Positions 14,497 to 49,325 of a DNA stretch of 64,000 bases are shown in pieces. Both the position numbers and the translations under genes were made by a program. Location of the stretch: assembly GCA_041653535.1 (NCBI GenBank), contig JBAZFH010000001.1:6052-70051 (forward strand). The letters are read 5' to 3'. Source of the stretch: Patescibacteria group bacterium. GTDB lineage: Bacteria > Patescibacteriota > Patescibacteriia > JACRDY01. A model generated the notes under the pieces. That model had not been told where the DNA came from and ran no database searches. It worked only from the letters and a program-made list of their open reading frames with translations. The first letter of the stretch is position 1, and every line of letters begins with the position of its first letter.

Positions 14497-14866
14497 GTAG
14501 GAGCTAAAAATAAAGCTTGTCCACGATTTTAAATATATGCGTAAAAATAACCTAATCAATAACGTTCTAGGCGGCTAGCAAGGAAATTTTTGTGCTATAT
14601 GGGACCGCTTAGAAGGCGGTTTTTTTAGTCAGCAGTAGAAAGCGAGTATTTTAACCTTTAGTGACTAAATGAAAATGACTCAGAGTCGTTTGGTCAGTGA
14701 AGGCTAAAGAGAAACGGAAAAACCGAACTTTAACAATTGAATCGAGGAATAATATTCCAACGTCAAAATGAAAATATAATTTTCGTCAAATTACGAAGAA
14801 GTAATATTAGAGAGTCTAATTAAAAAAATACATACTAAGCAAGGATTGTGTTTTCACAATTCTTGT

Positions 14867-18098
<3,232 letters not shown>

Positions 18099-42450: not shown

Positions 42451-42960
42451 TTACTTCTTTATAATTGTTTCTTTCAGTCTTTTGCTCCAGTTGCGGAGGA
42501 AATAGAGTTTACTGCGACGTACTTTGGCTTGTTTAACCACTTCTAGCTTGGCAACATTTGGCGAACGGAGAGGAAATATCTTTTCTACTCCGATACCGTC
42601 GGAAACCTTGCGAACAGTGATAGTAGCGCCGGCTTCGTTGCCATGTTTATGAGCGATGATCATACCTTCATAAATCTGGATTCTTTCTTTTTCTTCGCCC
42701 TTGGTATTTGTTTCTTTAATTTTTTGGTGAACGCGAACGGTCATACCCGGACGGATGTCGGAGAAGTCTTTAACTTCTTCTACGGCAGCAGGGGAGATCT
42801 CTTCTGGAGTTGGTTCTTCATTAGCAGTTGGAGCGGCTTCTGCTACTGGAGTTTCTGTCGCCGGTGTTTCTACTACTGGAGTAGTTTCCGGTGTTGGTTC
42901 GGCAGTCTGTGGAGCAACGTTATCGGTTGCAGCCTGATTTTGAGTATTTTCTTCTGTCAT
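42451..42960 (-). CDS. rplS: 50S ribosomal protein L19 with roughly 65-aa T/P/E/A-rich N-terminal extension
   Basis: C-terminal region ([14 protein letters not shown] ... [41 protein letters not shown]) matches L19. Confidence 0.85.
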
Positions 42961-43080
42961 ATGGTTTTTTATTTATTGCCCCTATTTTAGCGGAATATTA
43001 ATATAATGTCAAGATATGGGAAAAGAGGCAAAATAGCCTCTTTTTAAAAGAAGTTAAAGTTGGTTCATTGACAATACGTT

Positions 43081-43282
43081 TCGCTCTCATGCCGCCTGCC
43101 TGCCGGTAGGCAGGGGCGGGCACTTACTTTTTGTAACCAAAAAGTAAGCAAAAAGTTCCGGGGGCGCAAGTAAGCGCGTGTCCTTATCACCTTAAGGTTT
43201 CCTTACCCCGCCCCGCCCCTGCAGACCATAATTACCGAAACGGTTCGGGGCTTGGCGCGGCTTTCGCCCCCGGACCCCCGAG
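43081..43282 (+). repeat. GC-rich structured element, family copy C
   Basis: Shares the 5' module ctcatgccgcctgcctgccggtaggcaggg, a central perfect hairpin (cttactttttg-taacc-caaaaagtaag), caccttaaggtt and the 3' ggttcgggg...cccccggacccccg modules with the copies at 57453 and 59189. Confidence 0.7.
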
Positions 43283-43307
43283 AAGAAAAACACGATACAC
43301 TGATTTA

Positions 43308-43904
43308 TTATTGGGAAGTATTATTGATTTTGGCGAGGTGGCGCTGGATTATACCAATTATTCTTTCGACAGTGTCGTTCATCTTGCCTTCGTAGTTGAT
43401 TACAGTATAGTCGTAAAATTTGGCCTCTCCCAGTTCATCCTTTGCATTTTGTAGTCTTTTTTTAAACTCTTCCGGATCAATACCAGGGTCGCGGGTAATC
43501 AGACGATTTTTGATGCGAGAGATTCTGTCAGGCTTGATAAAAATTGATAGAGAATTTGGATAGAGTTTTTTTATAACTTTTTTGCCTTTTAACTCAAGGT
43601 TGATAACAATATTAATGCCATTTTTTAGCTTGTCCTCAATATCCTTTTTATTAGTGCCATAATAATGACCGCGATTTAAAACTTTGATATATTCCAAAAA
43701 TCCACCGGCTTTGATTTTTTTCTCAAAATCTTTAACGGAAAGAAATTTGTAGTCAACGCCGTTTTTTTCTCCAGGGCGGGGATCTCGAGAGGTATAAGTG
43801 GTGGTCATCTTGAGGTTTGGTATTTTTTGACACACAGCTTTGCTGACCGATGTTTCTCCGGCGCCAGTGGGACCGGCAATAACAAAAATTATTCCCCGCT
43901 TCAT
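43308..43904 (-). CDS. gmk: guanylate kinase
   Basis: P-loop GPTGAGETS, TTRDPRPGEKNGVDYKF and YYGTNKKDIE motifs. Start at MKRGIIFVIAG. Confidence 0.75.
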   Translation of the reverse strand: MKRGIIFVIAGPTGAGETSVSKAVCQKIPNLKMTTTYTSRDPRPGEKNGVDYKFLSVKDFEKKIKAGGFLEYIKVLNRGHYYGTNKKDIEDKLKNGINIVINLELKGKKVIKKLYPNSLSIFIKPDRISRIKNRLITRDPGIDPEEFKKRLQNAKDELGEAKFYDYTVINYEGKMNDTVERIIGIIQRHLAKINNTSQ

Positions 43905-43909
43905 ATTTT

Positions 43910-44901
43910 TTATTTTGTTGTATTTAAGTAATTTTTCAGATCCGTAGGTAAATCGGAGGAAAACTCCTGCCATTGATTATCTGAGTCGTAAAATCCAAGT
44001 AGGTGAGAATGCAAAAATAGTCTGGGTGGAGGAGCGGTTTCTTTTTTTTGTTTTCTGATCGTGTAGAGTTTGTCGCCGGCCAGCGGGTGTCCCAGGGCTT
44101 TAAAATGAACGCGGATCTGATGAGTGCGACCGGTTTTAATCGTAACTCGAACCAAAGTATAGTTGATAAAGTATTTTACTACATGGTATTCGGTCAGCGC
44201 ATTTTTCCCTTCTTGGCTTAGTGGTCTTGCCGCCATTGTTCCAGCAGATGATCGAGCGATAGAAAAATTTATTGTTCCAGAGTCTTTTTCCATTTTGCCT
44301 CGGACTAGAGCGAGATATTCTTTTTTTACCTTGCGGTCGGCAAATTGACTTTTGAGAAAAATAAACATTTTTTTGTTACGGGCGACAACTAGCAGGCCAG
44401 AAGCATCTTTGTCGATACGATGAACAATGCCCGGGCGATTTTTGTCCTCACCTATTTTTTTTACCTCGGGATATTTTGTCGCTATCTTTTGGATTAGTGT
44501 TCCGGTTAGGTATTTGCTGTCAGGATGAACAGGAATACCAGATGGTTTATTGATTACTAAATAATCGTCGGTTTTGGCGATGATGTCTAGGTTGAAGGGA
44601 GGGAGTTTGGAGCTGGTAGGTGGTAGTTGGTAGTTGGGGACTTGGAAATTGGAACAATTTTTTTATCGATGGTTATCTTGTCGTTGGTTTTCAGAAATTC
44701 GTGGACTGATGGAATCTCGCCGTTAACTAAAACCGCGCCTGATTTGATCAGTTTCTGAACTTGGGCGCGAGGTAGGTCAAGTTTGGTGGTTAGCAAAACA
44801 TCAAGACGGTTATTGTTATCTTTAGATTTTACGGTTATTGATTTCATTATAGTAGTGGGTAGTGGGTAGTGGGTAGTGATATTTTTAATAATTTTACTCA
44901 C
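43910..44901 (-). pseudogene. RluA-family pseudouridine synthase (S4 domain + catalytic domain) interrupted by a frameshift inside a heptanucleotide tandem repeat
   Basis: S4 domain (RLDVLLTTKLDLPRAQVQKLIKSGAVLVNG) lies in one frame and ends at the stop at 44587. The catalytic domain (DIIAKTDDYLVINKPSGIPVHP ... TGRTHQIRVH) is open in another frame from 44662 to 43910. The overlap contains the (TAGTTGG)n tract at about 44610-44637. Confidence 0.6.
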
Positions 44902-44922
44902 TAATCAATACTCGCTACACTG

Positions 44923-46410
44923 TTAAGAAGTCAGTTTTTTAATAAATTTCATCGCTTGTTGTTTTGTCTTAACCCTTCCTCTTAATTGTTCCTCACGTAA
45001 CTTAGCAATTGCTCTACCAACGTGTGGCCCGGGTTTGATTTTGAGTATTTTAATAATCTCATTACCGTCGAGAATCGGAGCGGGCAATGTTTTTTTGTTT
45101 TTAGCTAGCTTGGCAAGAACAGCTATTCTTCTACGCAGAGCGGCGGAGTAGCTGATAAATTTTTCACCTTTGGCAGGAACAGTAGCCATTTCATCGGCGT
45201 GAATCAGTTTAATTAAATCCTGCCCCGCTGGAGCAATAAAAAAATATTTTTCTATGGTAGTGCTTTTCATTTCGGCAATGCGGCCATGAACGGCGATCAT
45301 GTGTTTGGCGATCAGCCAAAAAACTTTATCCGGGTCGCAATCAATATCAGCATCTTTGTAGGCAGATAGCTTTAGCCGATCGCATATTTCTTTGGCTTTT
45401 TTGGCGCCGACTAAGTCGTGTTCGTTAAAACGAATACGATCACTGCCGTTTTTTTCCGGAGTCTGAATAGTGTAAGGTTTACCAATATCGTGAAAAAGTA
45501 GGCCAATAATAAGATTGACCGAAGGATATCCAGGGTAAAGTTTTTGAAATCTTTTGCTAGTCAAAGTTTTTAGGGCTAAGACAGTGTGCTGCCAGACGTC
45601 GCCTTCGCTATGCCAATTGTTTGGCTGCGGACATTTTTTTATTTTTAGTAATTCTGGCATCAGTTGTTTGATAAAACCAGCTTGGTCGAAAAGTCCTAGT
45701 GCTAGTACTGGCGCGGCATAGAAAGCTTTGAGCAAATCTTTGGCAATAGTTTCGCGAGGAACCACAAAATCATTGCCATTTTTTTTGTTGATTTTTGGCG
45801 CCAGTTTTTTTATGGTTGCCCAGGTATTTTTTTCAATAGCAAAATCTAGCTGGCAGGCAAAGCGGATAGCGCGTAGCATCCGACTATAATCTTCGGCAAA
45901 ACGGACGGAGGGTTTACCAACGGCGCGAATGATTTTTTTTACCAAATCCTTTTGGCCGGCAAAAGGATCGACGATTTTACCGCTGATCAGGTCTAGAGCC
46001 ATGGCGTTGACAGTGAAGTCACGCCGAGAAAGGTCTTCTTCGATTTTCAGTCGGTAGTTGGTCTGGACTTTGAAATCGCGATAAGCTCCGCTGCGGTCGA
46101 TGGAATATTCGGTGCGGGGAAGAGCAATGTCAATAGGAGATGGGAACTGGGAACTAGGATCTGGTAGTTTTGGGTTGAACTTAAAAACACCGAAAGATTT
46201 GCCGACTAGGTCAACTTTGCCATTTTTTCTGAGAAAAGCTTCAAGGGGTTTAGCGGGTACGCCGCGGACGAGCAAATCGTAGTCTTTGATTTTTTTGTTC
46301 AGTAGCAGGTCGCGGACCGCTCCGCCAACCAAAAATACTTCCGCAGCAGGAAAAGTGCGGGTTACCTTTTGAGCTAATTGGATTATTGATTTGTCTATTT
46401 TATTTAGCAT
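44923..46410 (-). CDS. cca: CCA-adding tRNA nucleotidyltransferase with HD domain
   Basis: GGAVRD head motif and LLFHDIGKP HD motif. Start is probably MLNKIDK. Confidence 0.8.
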   Translation of the reverse strand: MLNKIDKSIIQLAQKVTRTFPAAEVFLVGGAVRDLLLNKKIKDYDLLVRGVPAKPLEAFLRKNGKVDLVGKSFGVFKFNPKLPDPSSQFPSPIDIALPRTEYSIDRSGAYRDFKVQTNYRLKIEEDLSRRDFTVNAMALDLISGKIVDPFAGQKDLVKKIIRAVGKPSVRFAEDYSRMLRAIRFACQLDFAIEKNTWATIKKLAPKINKKNGNDFVVPRETIAKDLLKAFYAAPVLALGLFDQAGFIKQLMPELLKIKKCPQPNNWHSEGDVWQHTVLALKTLTSKRFQKLYPGYPSVNLIIGLLFHDIGKPYTIQTPEKNGSDRIRFNEHDLVGAKKAKEICDRLKLSAYKDADIDCDPDKVFWLIAKHMIAVHGRIAEMKSTTIEKYFFIAPAGQDLIKLIHADEMATVPAKGEKFISYSAALRRRIAVLAKLAKNKKTLPAPILDGNEIIKILKIKPGPHVGRAIAKLREEQLRGRVKTKQQAMKFIKKLTS

Positions 46411-47355
46411 AACTGCCTTTATTGTATCATAGTTTGATAAATGAAAAGAGCAGGGGGGGACCTGCTCCGCGGGCAAAAACACCGACATGGCGTTTTTGTT
46501 TTTTTGGTTGCTGTTGAGAAGGCGTCGCTAGGTTTTCTCTGCCCCCCAAAACCATGTAAACACCCTCTGGCGTCCTGTCGTTCCAAATTTGATGGAATGG
46601 TTAATAGTGTTGTGACTACAGAACACAACAGGACTAGGCATGTGCACTGATGGTATTTATTATTTTATTCTTTTTTAGGAACATGTCAATATTGATTTTT
46701 AAAGTAATAAAAAGACCCGAGTCAGTTGCGGCTCGGGCTATTTTTGCGGTTAGTTTAAGGCCGAGCCAGAGGAATATGGTGAGGATACCCATAAACCTCT
46801 GGCGTACTCTATGGTGGTGCCATTTTTTGGCGATTTTTGACGGTTTTCCTCTGAACCGTCAGGCACCTGGTCGCTTTGGTAGGCGTAAAGCCGCTAGCAA
46901 ATAAATTGCCTCGGCTTGCTACGGGCATCGCCACGCCATACTCACAGCGGTCGAGAACCCCACGGGTCTGCTTGATGATCAAGAGGAGGGCAAGATCTCC
47001 GCAGGGTTCGTCGCGCGCAACGCCGCCTCGGTCACGAGATTTATACTGGGCGGTAGTTGCGAAAAAAATCAAATCAAGTTGACAGCCCAGAGACAACTCC
47101 AGCCTCTCCTCAATATTCTGACCATCTTATTAACCAATGGCAGAGAAAAGGAGGTTTTGGCATTAGTGTCCCTGGGTCCAGTGACGCAAATTAATAGCGT
47201 CAATCTGGAAAATTTAAATTGTTAATATTTAATACTTCAGCTTGATTAGGTATTATTGCACAGTAGTATTTTTTTGTCAATACTTTGGATGCAGATTCGG
47301 TAAAAGTTGGTTTAATTTGTTTAAATTTAGATAAAAATATGGGAAATATTTTATC

Positions 47356-47386
47356 CACAAAAAGAGACCTGATGGTGCAGGTCTCC
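47356..47386 (-). terminator. intrinsic terminator on minus strand
   Basis: AGAGACCTG-atggtg-CAGGTCTC hairpin followed (minus sense) by TTTTTGTGG. Confidence 0.55.
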
Positions 47387-47580
47387 TGTGGTTGAATTGT
47401 ATTAATCTTTGTGGTAATGAATTATGTGTGGTGCAATCTTGGGGGCGAAGGGCTGCACTTACGCTTCGGCGGTAAACGATATAACTAATTCCACGTCGGT
47501 TTCCTTTTTGCTGCTTGTTTCGCATGTTTGCTTAATTTATGTTTAACCGTTTTAATAACTATTGTTAACAATGGAAAGCA

Positions 47581-47608
47581 TTGATTTAAGACAAAAAGGT
47601 GATATAAT
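47581..47608 (+). promoter_or_regulatory. promoter TTGATT-16-TATAAT (extended TGn) driving the leader element + tRNA-Ile
   Basis: Near-consensus hexamers about 135 nt upstream of tRNA-Ile; the leader contains a partial copy of the GC-rich element. Confidence 0.55.
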
Positions 47609-47621
47609 GCGAGGGAATTGA

Positions 47622-47710
47622 TATTTGCGTATGCCTGCCTGCCGGCAGGCAGGTAGCTTCCACCCAAGGCGGACAGGCAGCGGTTATGCTCCTGCTTCGC
47701 GGGAGGGGTG
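47622..47710 (+). repeat. partial copy (5' module) of the GC-rich element family in the tRNA-Ile leader
   Basis: atgcctgcctgccggcaggcagg matches the family 5' module; hairpin ctcctgcttcgcgggagg. Confidence 0.5.
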
Positions 47711-47744
47711 CATTTTACAATTTGGTTTTTTACTTTTTATTTAT

Positions 47745-47820
47745 GCGCGTGTAGCTCAGCGGTTAGAGCATCGCCCTTATAAGGCGGGGGTCGATGGTTC
47801 AAATCCATCCACGCGCACCA
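47745..47820 (+). tRNA. tRNA-Ile (anticodon UAU)
   Basis: Acceptor GCGCGTG/CACGCGC, anticodon stem TCGCC/GGCGG with loop CTTATAA (U33, anticodon TAT, A37), T-loop GGTTCAAATCC, encoded CCA. Confidence 0.75.
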
Positions 47821-47977
47821 GTGTGTTTTGTTTAGCAGCTCGGTTTTTACCTAATAATGTCGATCGATGGTTTGTCCCTTCGGGACATCTCCCGTAGGGA
47901 GACAAATCCATCCACGCGCACCATTCTTCGCTCGCTAGAGTGAAGAATGTCCTCCGTAGCTCGAAGAGCGAAGGAGG

Positions 47978-48002
47978 ACGAAACGTTGTTCGTCTCTTTT
48001 AG
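47978..48002 (+). terminator. intrinsic terminator after tRNA-Ile unit
   Basis: GACGAAacgttgTTCGTC followed by TCTTTTA. Confidence 0.55.
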
Positions 48003-48067
48003 TTCCGTCGCGAGCTTCGAATGGCGCGGCCATATTCTATTTATTAGGATTTCAGTATATTAAATTA

Positions 48068-48096
48068 TTGACAATGGTCGTTTTTGGCTTTATAAT
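48068..48096 (+). promoter_or_regulatory. consensus sigma70 promoter TTGACA-17-TATAAT upstream of tRNA-Val locus
   Basis: Perfect hexamers. Confidence 0.65.
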
Positions 48097-48263
48097 CAGC
48101 AGCACTAATATTTAGTAGTTATTAATTTGTAATTTGAAATTATCTTTTGGGCGTATAGCTTCCACCTACGCCCTCATTACATTCGGGCTTCGGCGGACAA
48201 GCATCTGGTATTTCACCATTTGCCTGCCAGTCGAAGCTCGCCAGTAATGGCGAGTGTAGATTG

Positions 48264-48317
48264 GGGCGGTTAGCTCAGTTTCTGCCAGAGGCAGACCCGC
48301 CTTCGGCGGGGGTTAGA
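48264..48317 (+). pseudogene. tRNA-Val 5' fragment (GGGCGGTTAGCTCAG) fused to a 34-nt GC double-hairpin insert
   Basis: 15-nt exact duplicate of the 5' end of tRNA-Val at 48564, followed by tttctgccagaggcagacccgccttcggcggggg + ttaga. The same 48-nt junction recurs at 48683-48730. Confidence 0.6.
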
Positions 48318-48563
48318 TTGTTTTTTTATGTCGGGAATATATGTTTTAAAAAGTTTAAAAAACGGTAAAAGATATGTGGGTAGTACTCGTAAAGATGTAG
48401 ATTTAAGGTTGAAAGAGCATAATTATGGGTCAAATGTTTGGACTAGGCAAAACGGACCTTTTAAATTAATTTATAAAGAAGGTTTTACTGACTATAAAGA
48501 TGCTTTGAAAAGAGAAAGATTTTTGAAGTCAGGCCAAGGCAGAAAATTTTTAGATAGTATTTT
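48279..48563 (+). mobile_element. roughly 285-bp insertion carrying a GIY-YIG nuclease gene, flanked by a 15-bp direct duplication of the tRNA-Val 5' end
   Basis: Direct repeats gggcggttagctcag at 48264-48278 and 48564-48578. The insert begins with two GC hairpins (ctgcc-aga-ggcag; cccgcc-ttc-ggcggg). Confidence 0.5.
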
Positions 48564-48573
48564 GGGCGGTTAG
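48328..48573 (+). CDS. small GIY-YIG nuclease domain protein (YhbQ/UPF0213-like)
   Basis: GIYVLKSLKNGKRYVGST ... RLKEHN ... motif. The last codons and stop overlap the first 10 nt of tRNA-Val. Confidence 0.65.
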   Translation: MSGIYVLKSLKNGKRYVGSTRKDVDLRLKEHNYGSNVWTRQNGPFKLIYKEGFTDYKDALKRERFLKSGQGRKFLDSILGG

Positions 48574-48640
48574 CTCAGCTGGTTAGAGCGTTACATTGAC
48601 ATTGTAAAGGTCACAAGTTCGAATCTTGTACCGCCCACCA
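48564..48640 (+). tRNA. tRNA-Val (anticodon GAC)
   Basis: GGGCGGTTAGCTCAGCTGGTTAGAGCG, anticodon loop TTGACAT, T-loop AGTTCGAATCT, encoded CCA. Terminator hairpin cagagactatagaagtctctg + T-run follows at 48645-48671. Confidence 0.85.
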
Positions 48641-48682
48641 AAGGCAGAGACTATAGAAGTCTCTGTTTTTTGTTGTATAAAA

Positions 48683-48783
48683 TTAGCTCAGTTTCTGCCA
48701 GAGGCAGACCCGCCTTCGGCGGGGGTTAGAGCGTTACATTGACATTGTAAAGGTCCGTGGTTCGAGTCCACGTATGCCCACCA
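48683..48783 (+). pseudogene. 5'-truncated second tRNA-Val(GAC)-like gene, D-arm onward, with the same 34-nt insert in its D-loop
   Basis: ttagctcag + 34-nt insert + ttagagcgttacattgacattgtaa ... ggttcgagtcc ... tatgcccACCA. No matching 5' acceptor strand (GGGCATA) upstream. Confidence 0.55.
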
Positions 48784-49325
48784 AAAGAACACCAGTGATG
48801 GTGTTTTTTTGTTTATTTAAAAAAGCCGACATTGCTATGTGCATCGTCGGCTATTGTTTTGATGCTAATCTTCGTCATCGTCTTCTAGCCCGTCAGAGGG
48901 CGGAAAGATTTCTATTGGATGATCTTCATTGTCTAGTTTTATGGCTAGCGCTAGGAGCATCAAGGCGTTTCTGGTTCTGGGGCTGCGACCGCCTCCGAAA
49001 TAAGTTCGGAAACGTAATACTGGTCCATGATGACCGTCTGTGCATACCCAGGCGTCACCGTCTTCCGAAAACTGGACTATTATTTGTCCTTTTGCCGTTC
49101 CGTCATTATCATCATGAAGTCGGGCGAATGTTTCTTTCGACGATAGGTCTGGAATCTAAAAGGGGTTGTTTAGAACACGATAGGCGTCTTTGATTAATCT
49201 TGCCGTTCCCGGTTCCGGTGGCATTTGCATTTCTCCTTTTGAGGTTGGTTTTTAAAATAAGCAGTGTTTTTTTGGTGCGTTAATAAATGCTAGCAAAAGG
49301 TCGTGTGAATAGCAAATGGGTATTT

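Follow-up and report, generated by a model that had tools for sequence, protein, structure and literature searches.

Decayed tRNA copies, 30-nt double hairpins and a small GIY-YIG gene at a tRNA-Ile(UAU)/tRNA-Val(GAC) pair of a Patescibacteria group bacterium: probable scars of a selfish element

The tRNA-Ile(UAU) gene considered here lies in a 64,000-nt stretch of a Patescibacteria group bacterium (contig JBAZFH010000001.1 of assembly GCA_041653535.1, positions 6,052 to 70,051, hereafter the window), and the last 21 nt of this gene recur exactly a short distance downstream. The initial annotation had taken this repeat for an att-like trace of an integrative element. Judging from alignment, the second 21-mer is instead the 3′ end of a decayed copy of tRNA-Ile, at about 47826-47923, placed just 3′ of the live gene and interrupted in its T loop by a 30-nt double hairpin. 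At the neighboring tRNA-Val gene, a tRNA 5′ piece, a 30-nt double hairpin, an open reading frame (ORF) for an 81-aa GIY-YIG protein, a complete tRNA and a dead copy with the same hairpin follow one another, and this unit is read as the intact form of a selfish element. The favored explanation, to which a probability of about 0.6 is assigned, is that the relics are scars left when small selfish elements of one family repeatedly invaded or duplicated both tRNA genes, and that the ORF was lost at tRNA-Ile.

The tRNA-Ile gene and its decayed copy

Five tRNA genes were found in the window by ARAGORN, including a tRNA-Ile with anticodon tat at 47745-47820, which Rfam recognized as a tRNA with 74.6 bits and a standard cloverleaf, with the anticodon loop CUUAUAA and with U33 and A37 in place. 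The initial assignment to tRNA-Ile with a UAU anticodon was thus upheld when the isotype was checked with ARAGORN, and the Rfam fold agreed with it. The final 21 nt of the gene, CAAATCCATCCACGCGCACCA, have two exact matches in total, at 47800-47820 and 47903-47923; no third copy was present in the window even allowing 3 mismatches, and none arose in 100 shuffles, showing that the repeat noticed at first is real and non-random. The two small hairpins described between the copies, which are separated by 82 nt, are present as well. The features of this unit are as follows.

47581-47608, plus strand: sigma-70-like promoter P1 of the tRNA-Ile unit, TTGATT, 16 nt, TATAAT, with TG (10 of 12 consensus matches)
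47634-47705, plus strand: structured leader, tentatively read as what is left of a tRNA-Ile 5′ part, riddled with hairpins (leader common to the syntenic locus L001)
47745-47820, plus strand: live tRNA-Ile, anticodon UAU, CCA encoded; 47800-47820 is repeat copy 1 (ARAGORN, Rfam)
47826-47872, plus strand: apparent decayed front of the second tRNA-Ile copy, with D-arm-like TTTAGCAGCTCGGTT, anticodon-loop-like CCTAATAA and GTCGAT(CGAT)GGTT (alignment against shuffles)
47873-47902, plus strand: 30-nt double hairpin TGTCCC-TTC-GGGACA / TCTCCC-GTA-GGGAGA, between T55 and C56 (geometry scan)
47903-47923, plus strand: repeat copy 2, comprising the T loop from C56, the T-stem 3′ strand, the acceptor 3′ strand, A73 and CCA (exact match)
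47922-48033, plus strand: run of further G+C-rich hairpins (folding), including GTCCTCC-GTAGCTCGAAGAGCGAA-GGAGGAC, which resembles an acceptor stem plus D arm (tRNA-relic reading by inspection only)

The decayed copy was recognized by the alignment of 47821-47872 with tRNA-Ile, which reached a score of 33.7, against 15.2 ± 3.5 and a maximum of 26.9 in 300 shuffles. Within it, GTCGAT(CGAT)GGTT (47859-47872) matches tRNA-Ile in its variable loop, in the 5′ strand of the T stem and in T54-T55, with a 4-nt duplication, and weaker D-arm-like and anticodon-loop-like matches can be followed upstream as far as about 47826; what the copy lacks is the 5′ acceptor strand and a portion of the anticodon arm. 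Since the similarity reaches 5′ of the hairpins, these represent a 30-nt insertion into a T loop and not cargo between two att sites. The insertion is clean, with GGTT on its left and CAAATCC on its right. Its geometry, in which two abutting hairpins each have a stem of 6 bp and a loop of 3 nt, occurs at three sites in the 64 kb (47873, 48281 and 48694), against 0.04 expected from dinucleotide shuffles, and all three double hairpins of this exact geometry lie inside tRNA fragments, the other two in tRNA-Val D loops. In fact, partial tRNA duplicates were found in the window for the Ile and Val genes only, and at least four tRNA relics, including the dead Ile copy, occupy the 743-nt interval between these two genes. 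The region 47821-48060 folds with z = −4.6 relative to shuffles, and an Rfam search over 47000-49300, at gathering as well as permissive thresholds, returned tRNA and chance matches only.

The leader upstream of tRNA-Ile is composed, in this order, of the 20-nt palindrome CCTGCCTGCCGGCAGGCAGG (47634-47653), TAGCT, the hairpin TCCACC-CAA-GGCGGA (47659-47673), CAGGCAGCGGTTA and the hairpin CTCCTGC-TTC-GCGGGAG (47689-47705). When it was compared with a tRNA 5′ part, local matches were suggestive, and the leader is considered a relic only tentatively because its global alignment to the tRNA was no better than those of shuffles. The perfect palindrome CCTGCCTGCCGGCAGGCAGG is a second family of hairpin insertions; it recurs in the unrelated contigs L021, L031, L065, L109, L167 and L172, and in L021, L031, L065 and L172 it sits in tRNA-derived sequence (D arm, T loop).

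The tRNA-Val unit

The neighboring unit carries the remaining two double hairpins of the window and the GIY-YIG ORF, and its features are listed below.

48068-48096, plus strand: promoter P2 of the tRNA-Val unit, perfect consensus TTGACA, 17 nt, TATAAT (12 of 12)
48149-48173, plus strand: older tRNA-Val relic, GGGCGTATAGCT (positions 1-12) joined to TCCACC TACGCCC, that is, GGGCGTATAGCT directly followed by TCCACCTACGCCC (window repeat comparison)
48264-48317, plus strand: tRNA-Val 5′ fragment (positions 1-15), with the canonical double hairpin in the D loop (48281-48310), then GGTTAGA (R1, 46.5 bits)
48328-48573, plus strand: ORF of the 81-aa stand-alone predicted GIY-YIG nuclease (PF01541, 58.5 bits)
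48564-48640, plus strand: live tRNA-Val(GAC) (ARAGORN, Rfam)
48640-48670, plus strand: terminator-like hairpin with a T run after tRNA-Val (terminator scan)
48683-48783, plus strand: dead tRNA-Val copy, positions 8-76 plus CCA, with no 5′ acceptor strand and with the canonical double hairpin (48694-48723) in the D loop (partial tRNA match, 34.1 bits)
48782-48811, plus strand: terminator-like hairpin with a T run that ends the Val unit (terminator scan)

The hairpin pair at 48281-48310 reads TCTGCC-AGA-GGCAGA / CCCGCC-TTC-GGCGGG and is the same in the dead copy, and both copies scored 46.5 bits with the sequence-plus-structure model R1. A 53-nt direct repeat, made of tRNA positions 8-15, the hairpins and positions 18-24 and 96% identical between its copies, therefore brackets the ORF and the live tRNA-Val, and the final codons and the stop codon of the ORF fall within the first 10 nt of this tRNA. 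The T arm and acceptor strand of the dead copy are unlike those of the live tRNA-Val. Moreover, the acceptor strand of the older relic pairs with the TATGCCC 3′ strand of the dead copy and not with the live gene, and the GGGCGTA/TACGCCC acceptor was also found in tRNA-Val genes of relatives.

The GIY-YIG protein

The Pfam domain PF01541 covers residues 1-68 of the 81-aa protein, which amounts to a bare catalytic domain, and an alignment of 39 homologues shows no variation at Y16, R27 and E63 and almost none at Y5, G18 and H31. Its best relative of solved structure is the Slx1-like UPF0213 protein 1ZG2 (E = 4.8e-6, residues 4-73); the match to I-TevI is marginal (E = 0.28), and the profile TIGR01453, of a group I intron endonuclease family, is matched over its N-terminal 48 of 215 positions with 30 bits, against a cut-off of 56. 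The 1ZG2 and 1YWL proteins have been assigned to the Slx1 lineage; Slx1 itself, the eukaryotic member, is a structure-specific nuclease, and the prokaryotic members represent a minimal form of the GIY-YIG domain (PMC1564403). The same 2006 survey described the fusion of GIY-YIG to a TrmH-type tRNA G18 methyltransferase and proposed a connection with RNA metabolism (PMC1564403).

Homologues number in the hundreds and occur in Patescibacteria and Omnitrophota. The nearest relatives of the ORF are located at other tRNA types: a 72% relative is at Val-UAC, others are at Val-CAC, Lys-UUU and Asn, and a 76% relative adjoins a truncated tRNA whose anticodon loop, judged by eye, is that of Ile-GAU. 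A closer syntenic Ile locus was looked for through the nearest relatives, P0002 and P0006, and both were at other tRNAs. Among 2.9 million viral contigs a single weak GIY-YIG relative was detected, with no copy of the Ile hairpin, and carriage by phages was dropped as an explanation. A defense-system reading was likewise dropped, as PADLOC gave marginal matches only.

The GIY-YIG/tRNA/hairpin arrangement in other genomes

A scan of one genome per species returned 360 relatives of the ORF, and 80 loci from phyla that included Patescibacteria and Omnitrophota were examined. At 55 of them no more than about 120 nt, and mostly 0-30 nt, separate the ORF stop codon from the start of a tRNA gene on the same strand; tRNA-Asn is the most frequent type, and Val, Ala, Ile(UAU), Lys, Met, Thr, Pro, Arg and Phe are also represented. 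A tRNA-Asn bearing a group I intron (position 35/36), a kind of gene missed by ARAGORN (PMC13011429), follows the ORF at ten loci, four have the live tRNA 5′ of the ORF and a hairpin-bearing dead copy 3′ of it, and the remaining five have a tRNA gene or tRNA-derived sequence 3′ of the ORF, farther off or past extra dead copies; at the other six the contig end was too near the ORF to judge. Dead tRNA copies often follow the ORF. On its 5′ side, a copy of the first 15 nt of the tRNA was found 55-110 nt upstream of the start codon at 35 of 59 loci, and the interval from this copy to the ATG contains a conserved 30-nt double hairpin, of consensus TCCGCC-AGA-GGCGGA / CCAGCC-TCT-GGCTGG.

The pairing of this canonical hairpin was assessed in 74 unique sequences that had been picked solely by their GCC/GGC cores. 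The six pairs that took no part in the selection are formed in 97-100% of the 74 sequences, A-T and C-G alternate at three positions, and 119 double-sided changes were counted, against 40 ± 11 in shuffles (0 of 500), while register-shifted controls collapsed. Nearly all of 100 canonical copies lie in tRNA-derived DNA, according to an approximate classification of the flanks and at loci chosen by the ORF. Their insertion sites are the D loop, the 7|8 and 13|14 junctions, the anticodon stem of tRNA-Asn on its 5′ side, the anticodon loop of tRNA-Lys and the T loop; the insertions are clean, without target duplication, and the left flank nearly always ends in TT. T-loop insertions at GGTT|C, as at tRNA-Ile in the window, were found in L016, L022 and L072 with the canonical hairpin and in L096, L001/L197, L062 and L172 with variant hairpins. 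All hairpin-bearing copies that were inspected are truncated, and next to each of them stands an intact copy of the tRNA concerned.

Several of these loci presented further peculiarities. Tandem arrays of dead tRNA-Lys, in units of exactly 100 nt with the double hairpin in the anticodon loop, occur in L004-L008 (3375-3605), and their copy number (1, 2 or 3) differs between samples with an identical GIY-YIG protein, which indicates ongoing amplification or contraction. In L060 (2301-2600), a second, divergent GIY-YIG ORF (YFVYIL... type) is located between a live tRNA-Asn and its hairpin-bearing 3′ fragment, and ORF-bearing versions of the 3′-side layout therefore exist. The intron-bearing tRNA-Asn genes, at about 2240-2500 and directly after the ORF, belong to L012, L040, L042, L044, L046, L068, L073, L075, L076 and L082, so that a free-standing GIY-YIG gene adjoins group I introns of tRNA-Asn genes at ten loci. 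A survey of tRNA introns in Patescibacteria judged them to be mostly without homing endonuclease genes and makes no mention of GIY-YIG (PMC13011429).

The tRNA-Ile locus in relatives

The tRNA-Ile(UAU) contigs retrieved by a metagenome scan, at least 120, served as comparison loci. Many of them share L19, guanylate kinase (GMK) and the CCA-adding enzyme with the window and are therefore orthologous neighborhoods. The spacer between tRNA-Ile and tRNA-Val varied among such loci as follows.

Spacer of 1-13 nt: L160, L176, L191, L192, L158, L155
Spacer of 46-264 nt: L135, L112, L161, L200, L167, with tRNA pieces and hairpins in L161, L200 and L167
Spacer of 402 nt, ORF included: L197 (= L001)
Spacer of 743 nt: the window

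There is thus a presence/absence polymorphism at an orthologous site, as the two genes are 1-13 nt apart in some relatives and 743 nt apart here. The design of L001/L197 matches that of the window, with tRNA-Ile(UAU), two hairpins and then CGAGTCCATCTGCGCCC, which has 3 mismatches to the 3′ end of its own tRNA. A full GIY-YIG element at tRNA-Ile(UAU) was found in four named Patescibacteria genomes (L037, L051, L061 and L063), and in L063 a hairpin-bearing dead Ile copy directly follows the live gene. Counted without regard to the ORF, about one in ten of the tRNA-Ile(UAU) loci among the matches listed has a downstream partial copy bounded at a T-loop or anticodon-loop hairpin.

Another class of dead Ile(UAU) copies was observed 60-160 nt after tRNA-Ile in L110, L147, L156, L174, L164, L200, L123 and L095. 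It consists of the 3′ part of the tRNA from the anticodon loop on, behind an imperfect hairpin of about 65 nt that ends in ...GATATA; in L164 the insert lies between the two halves of the anticodon arm, and TATAA is present on either side of it.

Gene order around the pair also differs. In the relatives L160, L176, L191, L167, L193 and L200, Ile(UAU), Val(GAC), the CCA enzyme in part of the cases, GMK, L19, Leu(GAG), Val(UAC) and Ala(UGC) are on one strand, and in the window (42451-48640) the other strand encodes the CCA-GMK-L19 block, which lies upstream of tRNA-Ile; this is an inversion with a breakpoint beside the remodeled tRNA pair.

A proposed course of events and the points that weigh against it

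The scars could have arisen as follows. The nuclease would break the DNA of a tRNA gene at loop positions, perhaps by way of an extruded stem-loop structure, a mode of recognition that is proposed because the protein has no DNA-binding domain. Recombinational repair would then copy the element with, or beside, a complete tRNA, so that the cell retains a working gene, and truncated pieces of the gene would be left as direct repeats on both sides. The double hairpin would insert after ..TT in tRNA loops without target duplication and mark the disabled copies, and repeated rounds would drive the older truncated, hairpin-marked pieces outward. The expected outcome at tRNA-Val would be the nested series of old 5′ relic, newer 5′ fragment, ORF, live gene and dead copy; at tRNA-Ile, where the ORF would have been lost, the structured leader, the live gene and the dead copy would remain.

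Several observations weigh against this explanation, most of them at tRNA-Ile. The GIY-YIG ORF is missing there, and the link of this locus to the element is therefore one of analogy and adjacency. The Ile insert gave no match to model R1 at E ≤ 10; its geometry and a T..A / CC..GG skeleton are the sole traits that it has in common with the canonical hairpin, and consequently the shared geometry alone is claimed here, and membership in the canonical family is not. No near copy of the Ile hairpin was found in any fetched locus or in IMG/VR, and most of the downstream partial Ile copies in relatives hold other inserts, such as the hairpin of about 65 nt in the anticodon loop. The 21 nt have stayed 100% identical while the rest of the dead copy decayed; a guess is that conversion by the live gene, at a distance of 82 nt, kept this identity. 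As for the protein, it consists of 81 aa without a DNA-binding domain, its nearest solved structure is that of UPF0213 and not of a homing endonuclease, its score does not reach the cut-off of the group I intron endonuclease family, and it is a predicted nuclease whose activity and target are putative. Finally, the live tRNA-Val is closest to the tRNA-Val of the element-free relative L192; the possibility that this tRNA traveled with the ORF was dropped for that reason, as the best match gives no evidence of a tRNA moving with the ORF.

A bolder version of the favored explanation was also considered, although it is judged improbable in its full extent. According to it, the Slx1-like GIY-YIG protein and the double hairpin would constitute an unrecognized kind of mobile element that senses structure (the tRNA cloverleaf or cruciform DNA, or its own leader as a guide) without a DNA-binding domain of the protein. 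The element would enter tRNA loops cleanly after TT and bring or regenerate a complete tRNA, which would make splicing unnecessary, and the scar at tRNA-Ile would be left from a second sequence family with the same mechanism.

Alternative explanations

The 21-mers could be attL/attR-type repeats of an integrase-mediated element that used the tRNA 3′ end and was later deleted, in agreement with a direct repeat of a tRNA 3′ end including CCA and with a large serine recombinase gene about 1.8 kb past tRNA-Val in the syntenic L001. This explanation is largely refuted and retains a very small likelihood. No integrase is encoded within about 6 kb in the window, and no recombinase was found in a Pfam scan of the 17 ORFs between 41.4 and 54.7 kb; the similarity to the tRNA runs 5′ of the repeat, across the hairpin pair, into the T arm and beyond, which makes the repeat the end of a longer decayed copy; and the same construction occurs elsewhere with breakpoints in the D or anticodon loop and with 5′ fragments, which att duplication does not yield. 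A larger element between the repeats, whose presence in relatives had been envisaged, was absent from 117 tRNA-Ile(UAU) loci among the matches listed: none of them has a kb-scale element bounded by the tRNA 3′ end or a distant second copy bounding an island, and the second copies lie 58-117 nt downstream. Of the proposal that the locus holds a remnant of an excised element or a very small insertion, the past rearrangement at a tRNA gene stands, the 30-nt insertion being literally very small, and the excised integrase-type element does not. More plausible than the att repeats, though still improbable, is that the double hairpins and palindromes are miniature transposable elements of the REP or IS200/IS605 type, moved in trans by an unlinked transposase, that the tRNA copies arose by unequal recombination or slippage and that the ORF is a mere co-resident. 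IS200/IS605-type elements have hairpin ends and insert cleanly by a short motif without target duplication. The clean insertions 3′ of ..TT without target duplication resemble those of IS200/IS605 or REP elements, and tRNA fragments hold hairpins of several families (the 30-nt pair, the 20-nt palindrome and those of about 65 nt), which is why this rival deserves consideration; two hairpin pairs can also share one fragment (L083, L072), and ORF-less hairpin-riddled fragments exist (L161, L167). However, no Y1/RAYT transposase appeared among the Pfam labels of the few fetched contexts or of the scanned window ORFs, although no search aimed at these was made, and all canonical copies are in tRNA-derived DNA near the ORF family in a sample that was itself chosen by the ORF. 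Moreover, the canonical hairpin occupies a fixed place and distance 5′ of the GIY-YIG start in dozens of genomes of several phyla, which favors a physical unit.

A role of the hairpins and tRNA pieces as functional cis-acting RNA under selection (processing, stabilizing or terminating modules, or tRNA-like decoys) appears somewhat less probable than miniature elements. Compensatory changes uphold the pairing of the stems, the 21 nt including CCA are perfectly preserved, the region folds far above shuffles (see above), and streamlined genomes seldom hold 700 nt of junk; besides, the leader, the T-loop hairpins and the 3′ piece are kept in the diverged syntenic L001/L197 with quite different hairpin sequences. 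Yet their distribution is patchy, with the low frequency of about one in ten given above and with Ile and Val abutting in many syntenic relatives, neither the ends of the fragments nor the insertion sites are constant, a weak terminator-like site comes directly after the live tRNA-Ile, and no Rfam family was matched. In addition, the element is nearly its own reverse complement and scores similarly on both strands, so that nothing favors RNA over DNA. Two further readings have next to no weight. If the hairpin-bearing copies were real genes, with a new kind of short intervening sequence to be excised from the precursor tRNA, this would fit inserts that are clean, located in loops and conserved in structure, in a phylum rich in tRNA introns (PMC13011429), but the inspected hairpin-bearing copies lack the acceptor strand or are otherwise truncated and stand beside an intact copy, and the insert has 30 nt, no group I features and no Rfam match. 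Mis-joining of repeats during metagenome assembly might be suspected, as the source is a metagenome-assembled genome and many GIY-YIG contigs break just after the ORF; the same architecture in dozens of independent assemblies from different projects and phyla speaks against such an artefact.

Decoding of AUA

The UAU anticodon had been described as an uncommon solution in bacteria. This holds for bacteria in general, in which tRNA-Ile(UAU) is unusual and the species known to decode AUA in that way lack tilS (PMC3575796), but not for this lineage, in which it is common, because at least 120 contigs of the metagenome scan match its anticodon arm; four named Patescibacteria genomes also carry tRNA-Ile(UAU). 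The AUA codon is in use, with 26 ATA among the 171 Ile codons of seven Pfam-supported ORFs of the window. Neither an SGGxDS PP-loop (TilS-type) motif nor a CAU tRNA was found within the 64-kb window, which says little on the whole genome, and the literature search returned nothing tying tilS or UAU decoding to Patescibacteria. The closest parallel is the TilS-independent AUA decoding of Mycoplasma mobile (PMC3575796), which shares a genome-encoded UAU anticodon and AUA codons that are really used; the lineage differs, as the present case belongs to Patescibacteria, where tRNA-Ile(UAU) appears to be common.

Other features of the window

The 23S rRNA match at 14866-18096 spans 3231 nt, against 2925 nt of the Rfam model, which corresponds to about 300 nt of insertions in the gene; it is flanked by tRNA-Leu (12933) and 5S (18171), with no 16S adjacent upstream. 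On the minus strand (43910-44901), an Rlu-type pseudouridine synthase is split over at least two frames, with the S4 domain in an ORF at 44587-44901, the catalytic motifs DYLVINKPSG and HRIDKDASG in another open frame at 44300-44650 and a C-terminal ORF at 43910-44368; since its orthologue in L213 is a single 339-aa ORF, the gene in the window is either frameshifted or affected by a sequencing error. Also on the minus strand, at 48843-49250, a short, possibly coding frame opposite a listed 139-aa plus-strand ORF appears by eye to be broken by an in-frame TAG soon after a plausible start, and it has no Pfam match.

Implications and comparison with known systems

If the favored explanation is true, a tiny and apparently undescribed element, made of a nuclease and a hairpin, remodels tRNA loci in Patescibacteria, Omnitrophota and several other uncultured phyla, and would account for contig breaks at tRNA genes, odd partial tRNA calls and the growth of tRNA-pair spacers from 1 to 700 nt. 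An 81-aa protein, a 30-nt hairpin and a tRNA gene would offer a simple system in which to study how a target is found without a DNA-binding domain, and they would represent one way in which a selfish element can settle in an essential gene and do without splicing, namely by having a whole copy stand next to the broken one. In annotation, it would be wrong to score the 21-nt repeat as an att site or to use it for calling genomic islands.

The arrangement is akin to known free-standing nuclease elements and to mobile-element scars at tRNA genes, and itself appears to be undescribed: the literature searches returned no account of a GIY-YIG/tRNA-fragment/hairpin arrangement in these phyla. Integrase-type islands and prophages at tRNA 3′ ends (bioRxiv 10.1101/2022.07.05.498093) likewise duplicate a piece of the tRNA as a direct repeat and keep a complete gene, but here no integrase was found, the breakpoints fall in loops (D, anticodon, variable or T), 5′ as well as 3′ fragments exist, and, instead of islands measured in kb, the fragments bear hairpins and the enclosed DNA amounts to tens to hundreds of nt. 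The IS200/IS605 family, its miniature derivatives and REP/REPIN-RAYT systems resemble the present element in their small G+C-rich hairpins, clean insertion beside a motif, occurrence in pairs and one hairpin-flanked protein gene; they use Y1 (HUH) transposases, whereas the linked gene here is of the GIY-YIG type and the targets are tRNA-derived only. Group I introns in Patescibacteria tRNA genes (PMC13011429) concern the same phylum and the same class of insertion target, and differ from the double hairpin, which has 30 nt, contains no ribozyme and resides in disabled copies adjacent to an intact one.

On the side of the protein, the UPF0213 family (YhbQ-type; PDB 1ZG2, 1YWL; PMC1564403) comprises similar stand-alone catalytic domains of about 80-100 aa; the linkage to tRNA genes, the hairpin element and the signs of mobility seen here are not described for it in searchable papers. 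The nearest functional parallel is SegB of the phages T4 and T6, a free-standing GIY-YIG endonuclease that cuts in the phage tRNA cluster and leads to recombination-dependent tandem amplification of tRNA genes together with segB (PMC2330249; PMC13096335). In both cases a GIY-YIG nuclease gene is located among tRNA genes, and the co-conversion and tandem amplification that result from SegB cutting, as well as the microhomology between the tRNA 5′ end and the 3′ end of the nuclease gene, are also counted as likenesses (PMC2330249; PMC13096335). Unlike SegB, which is a phage protein with DNA-binding regions, the present protein is cellular, has 81 aa, consists of the catalytic domain alone and belongs to the Slx1/UPF0213 branch, and its ORF is practically absent from viruses, as indicated by the single weak relative mentioned above. 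The element described here furthermore differs from SegB in having a conserved 30-nt double hairpin and in leaving truncated tRNA copies behind.

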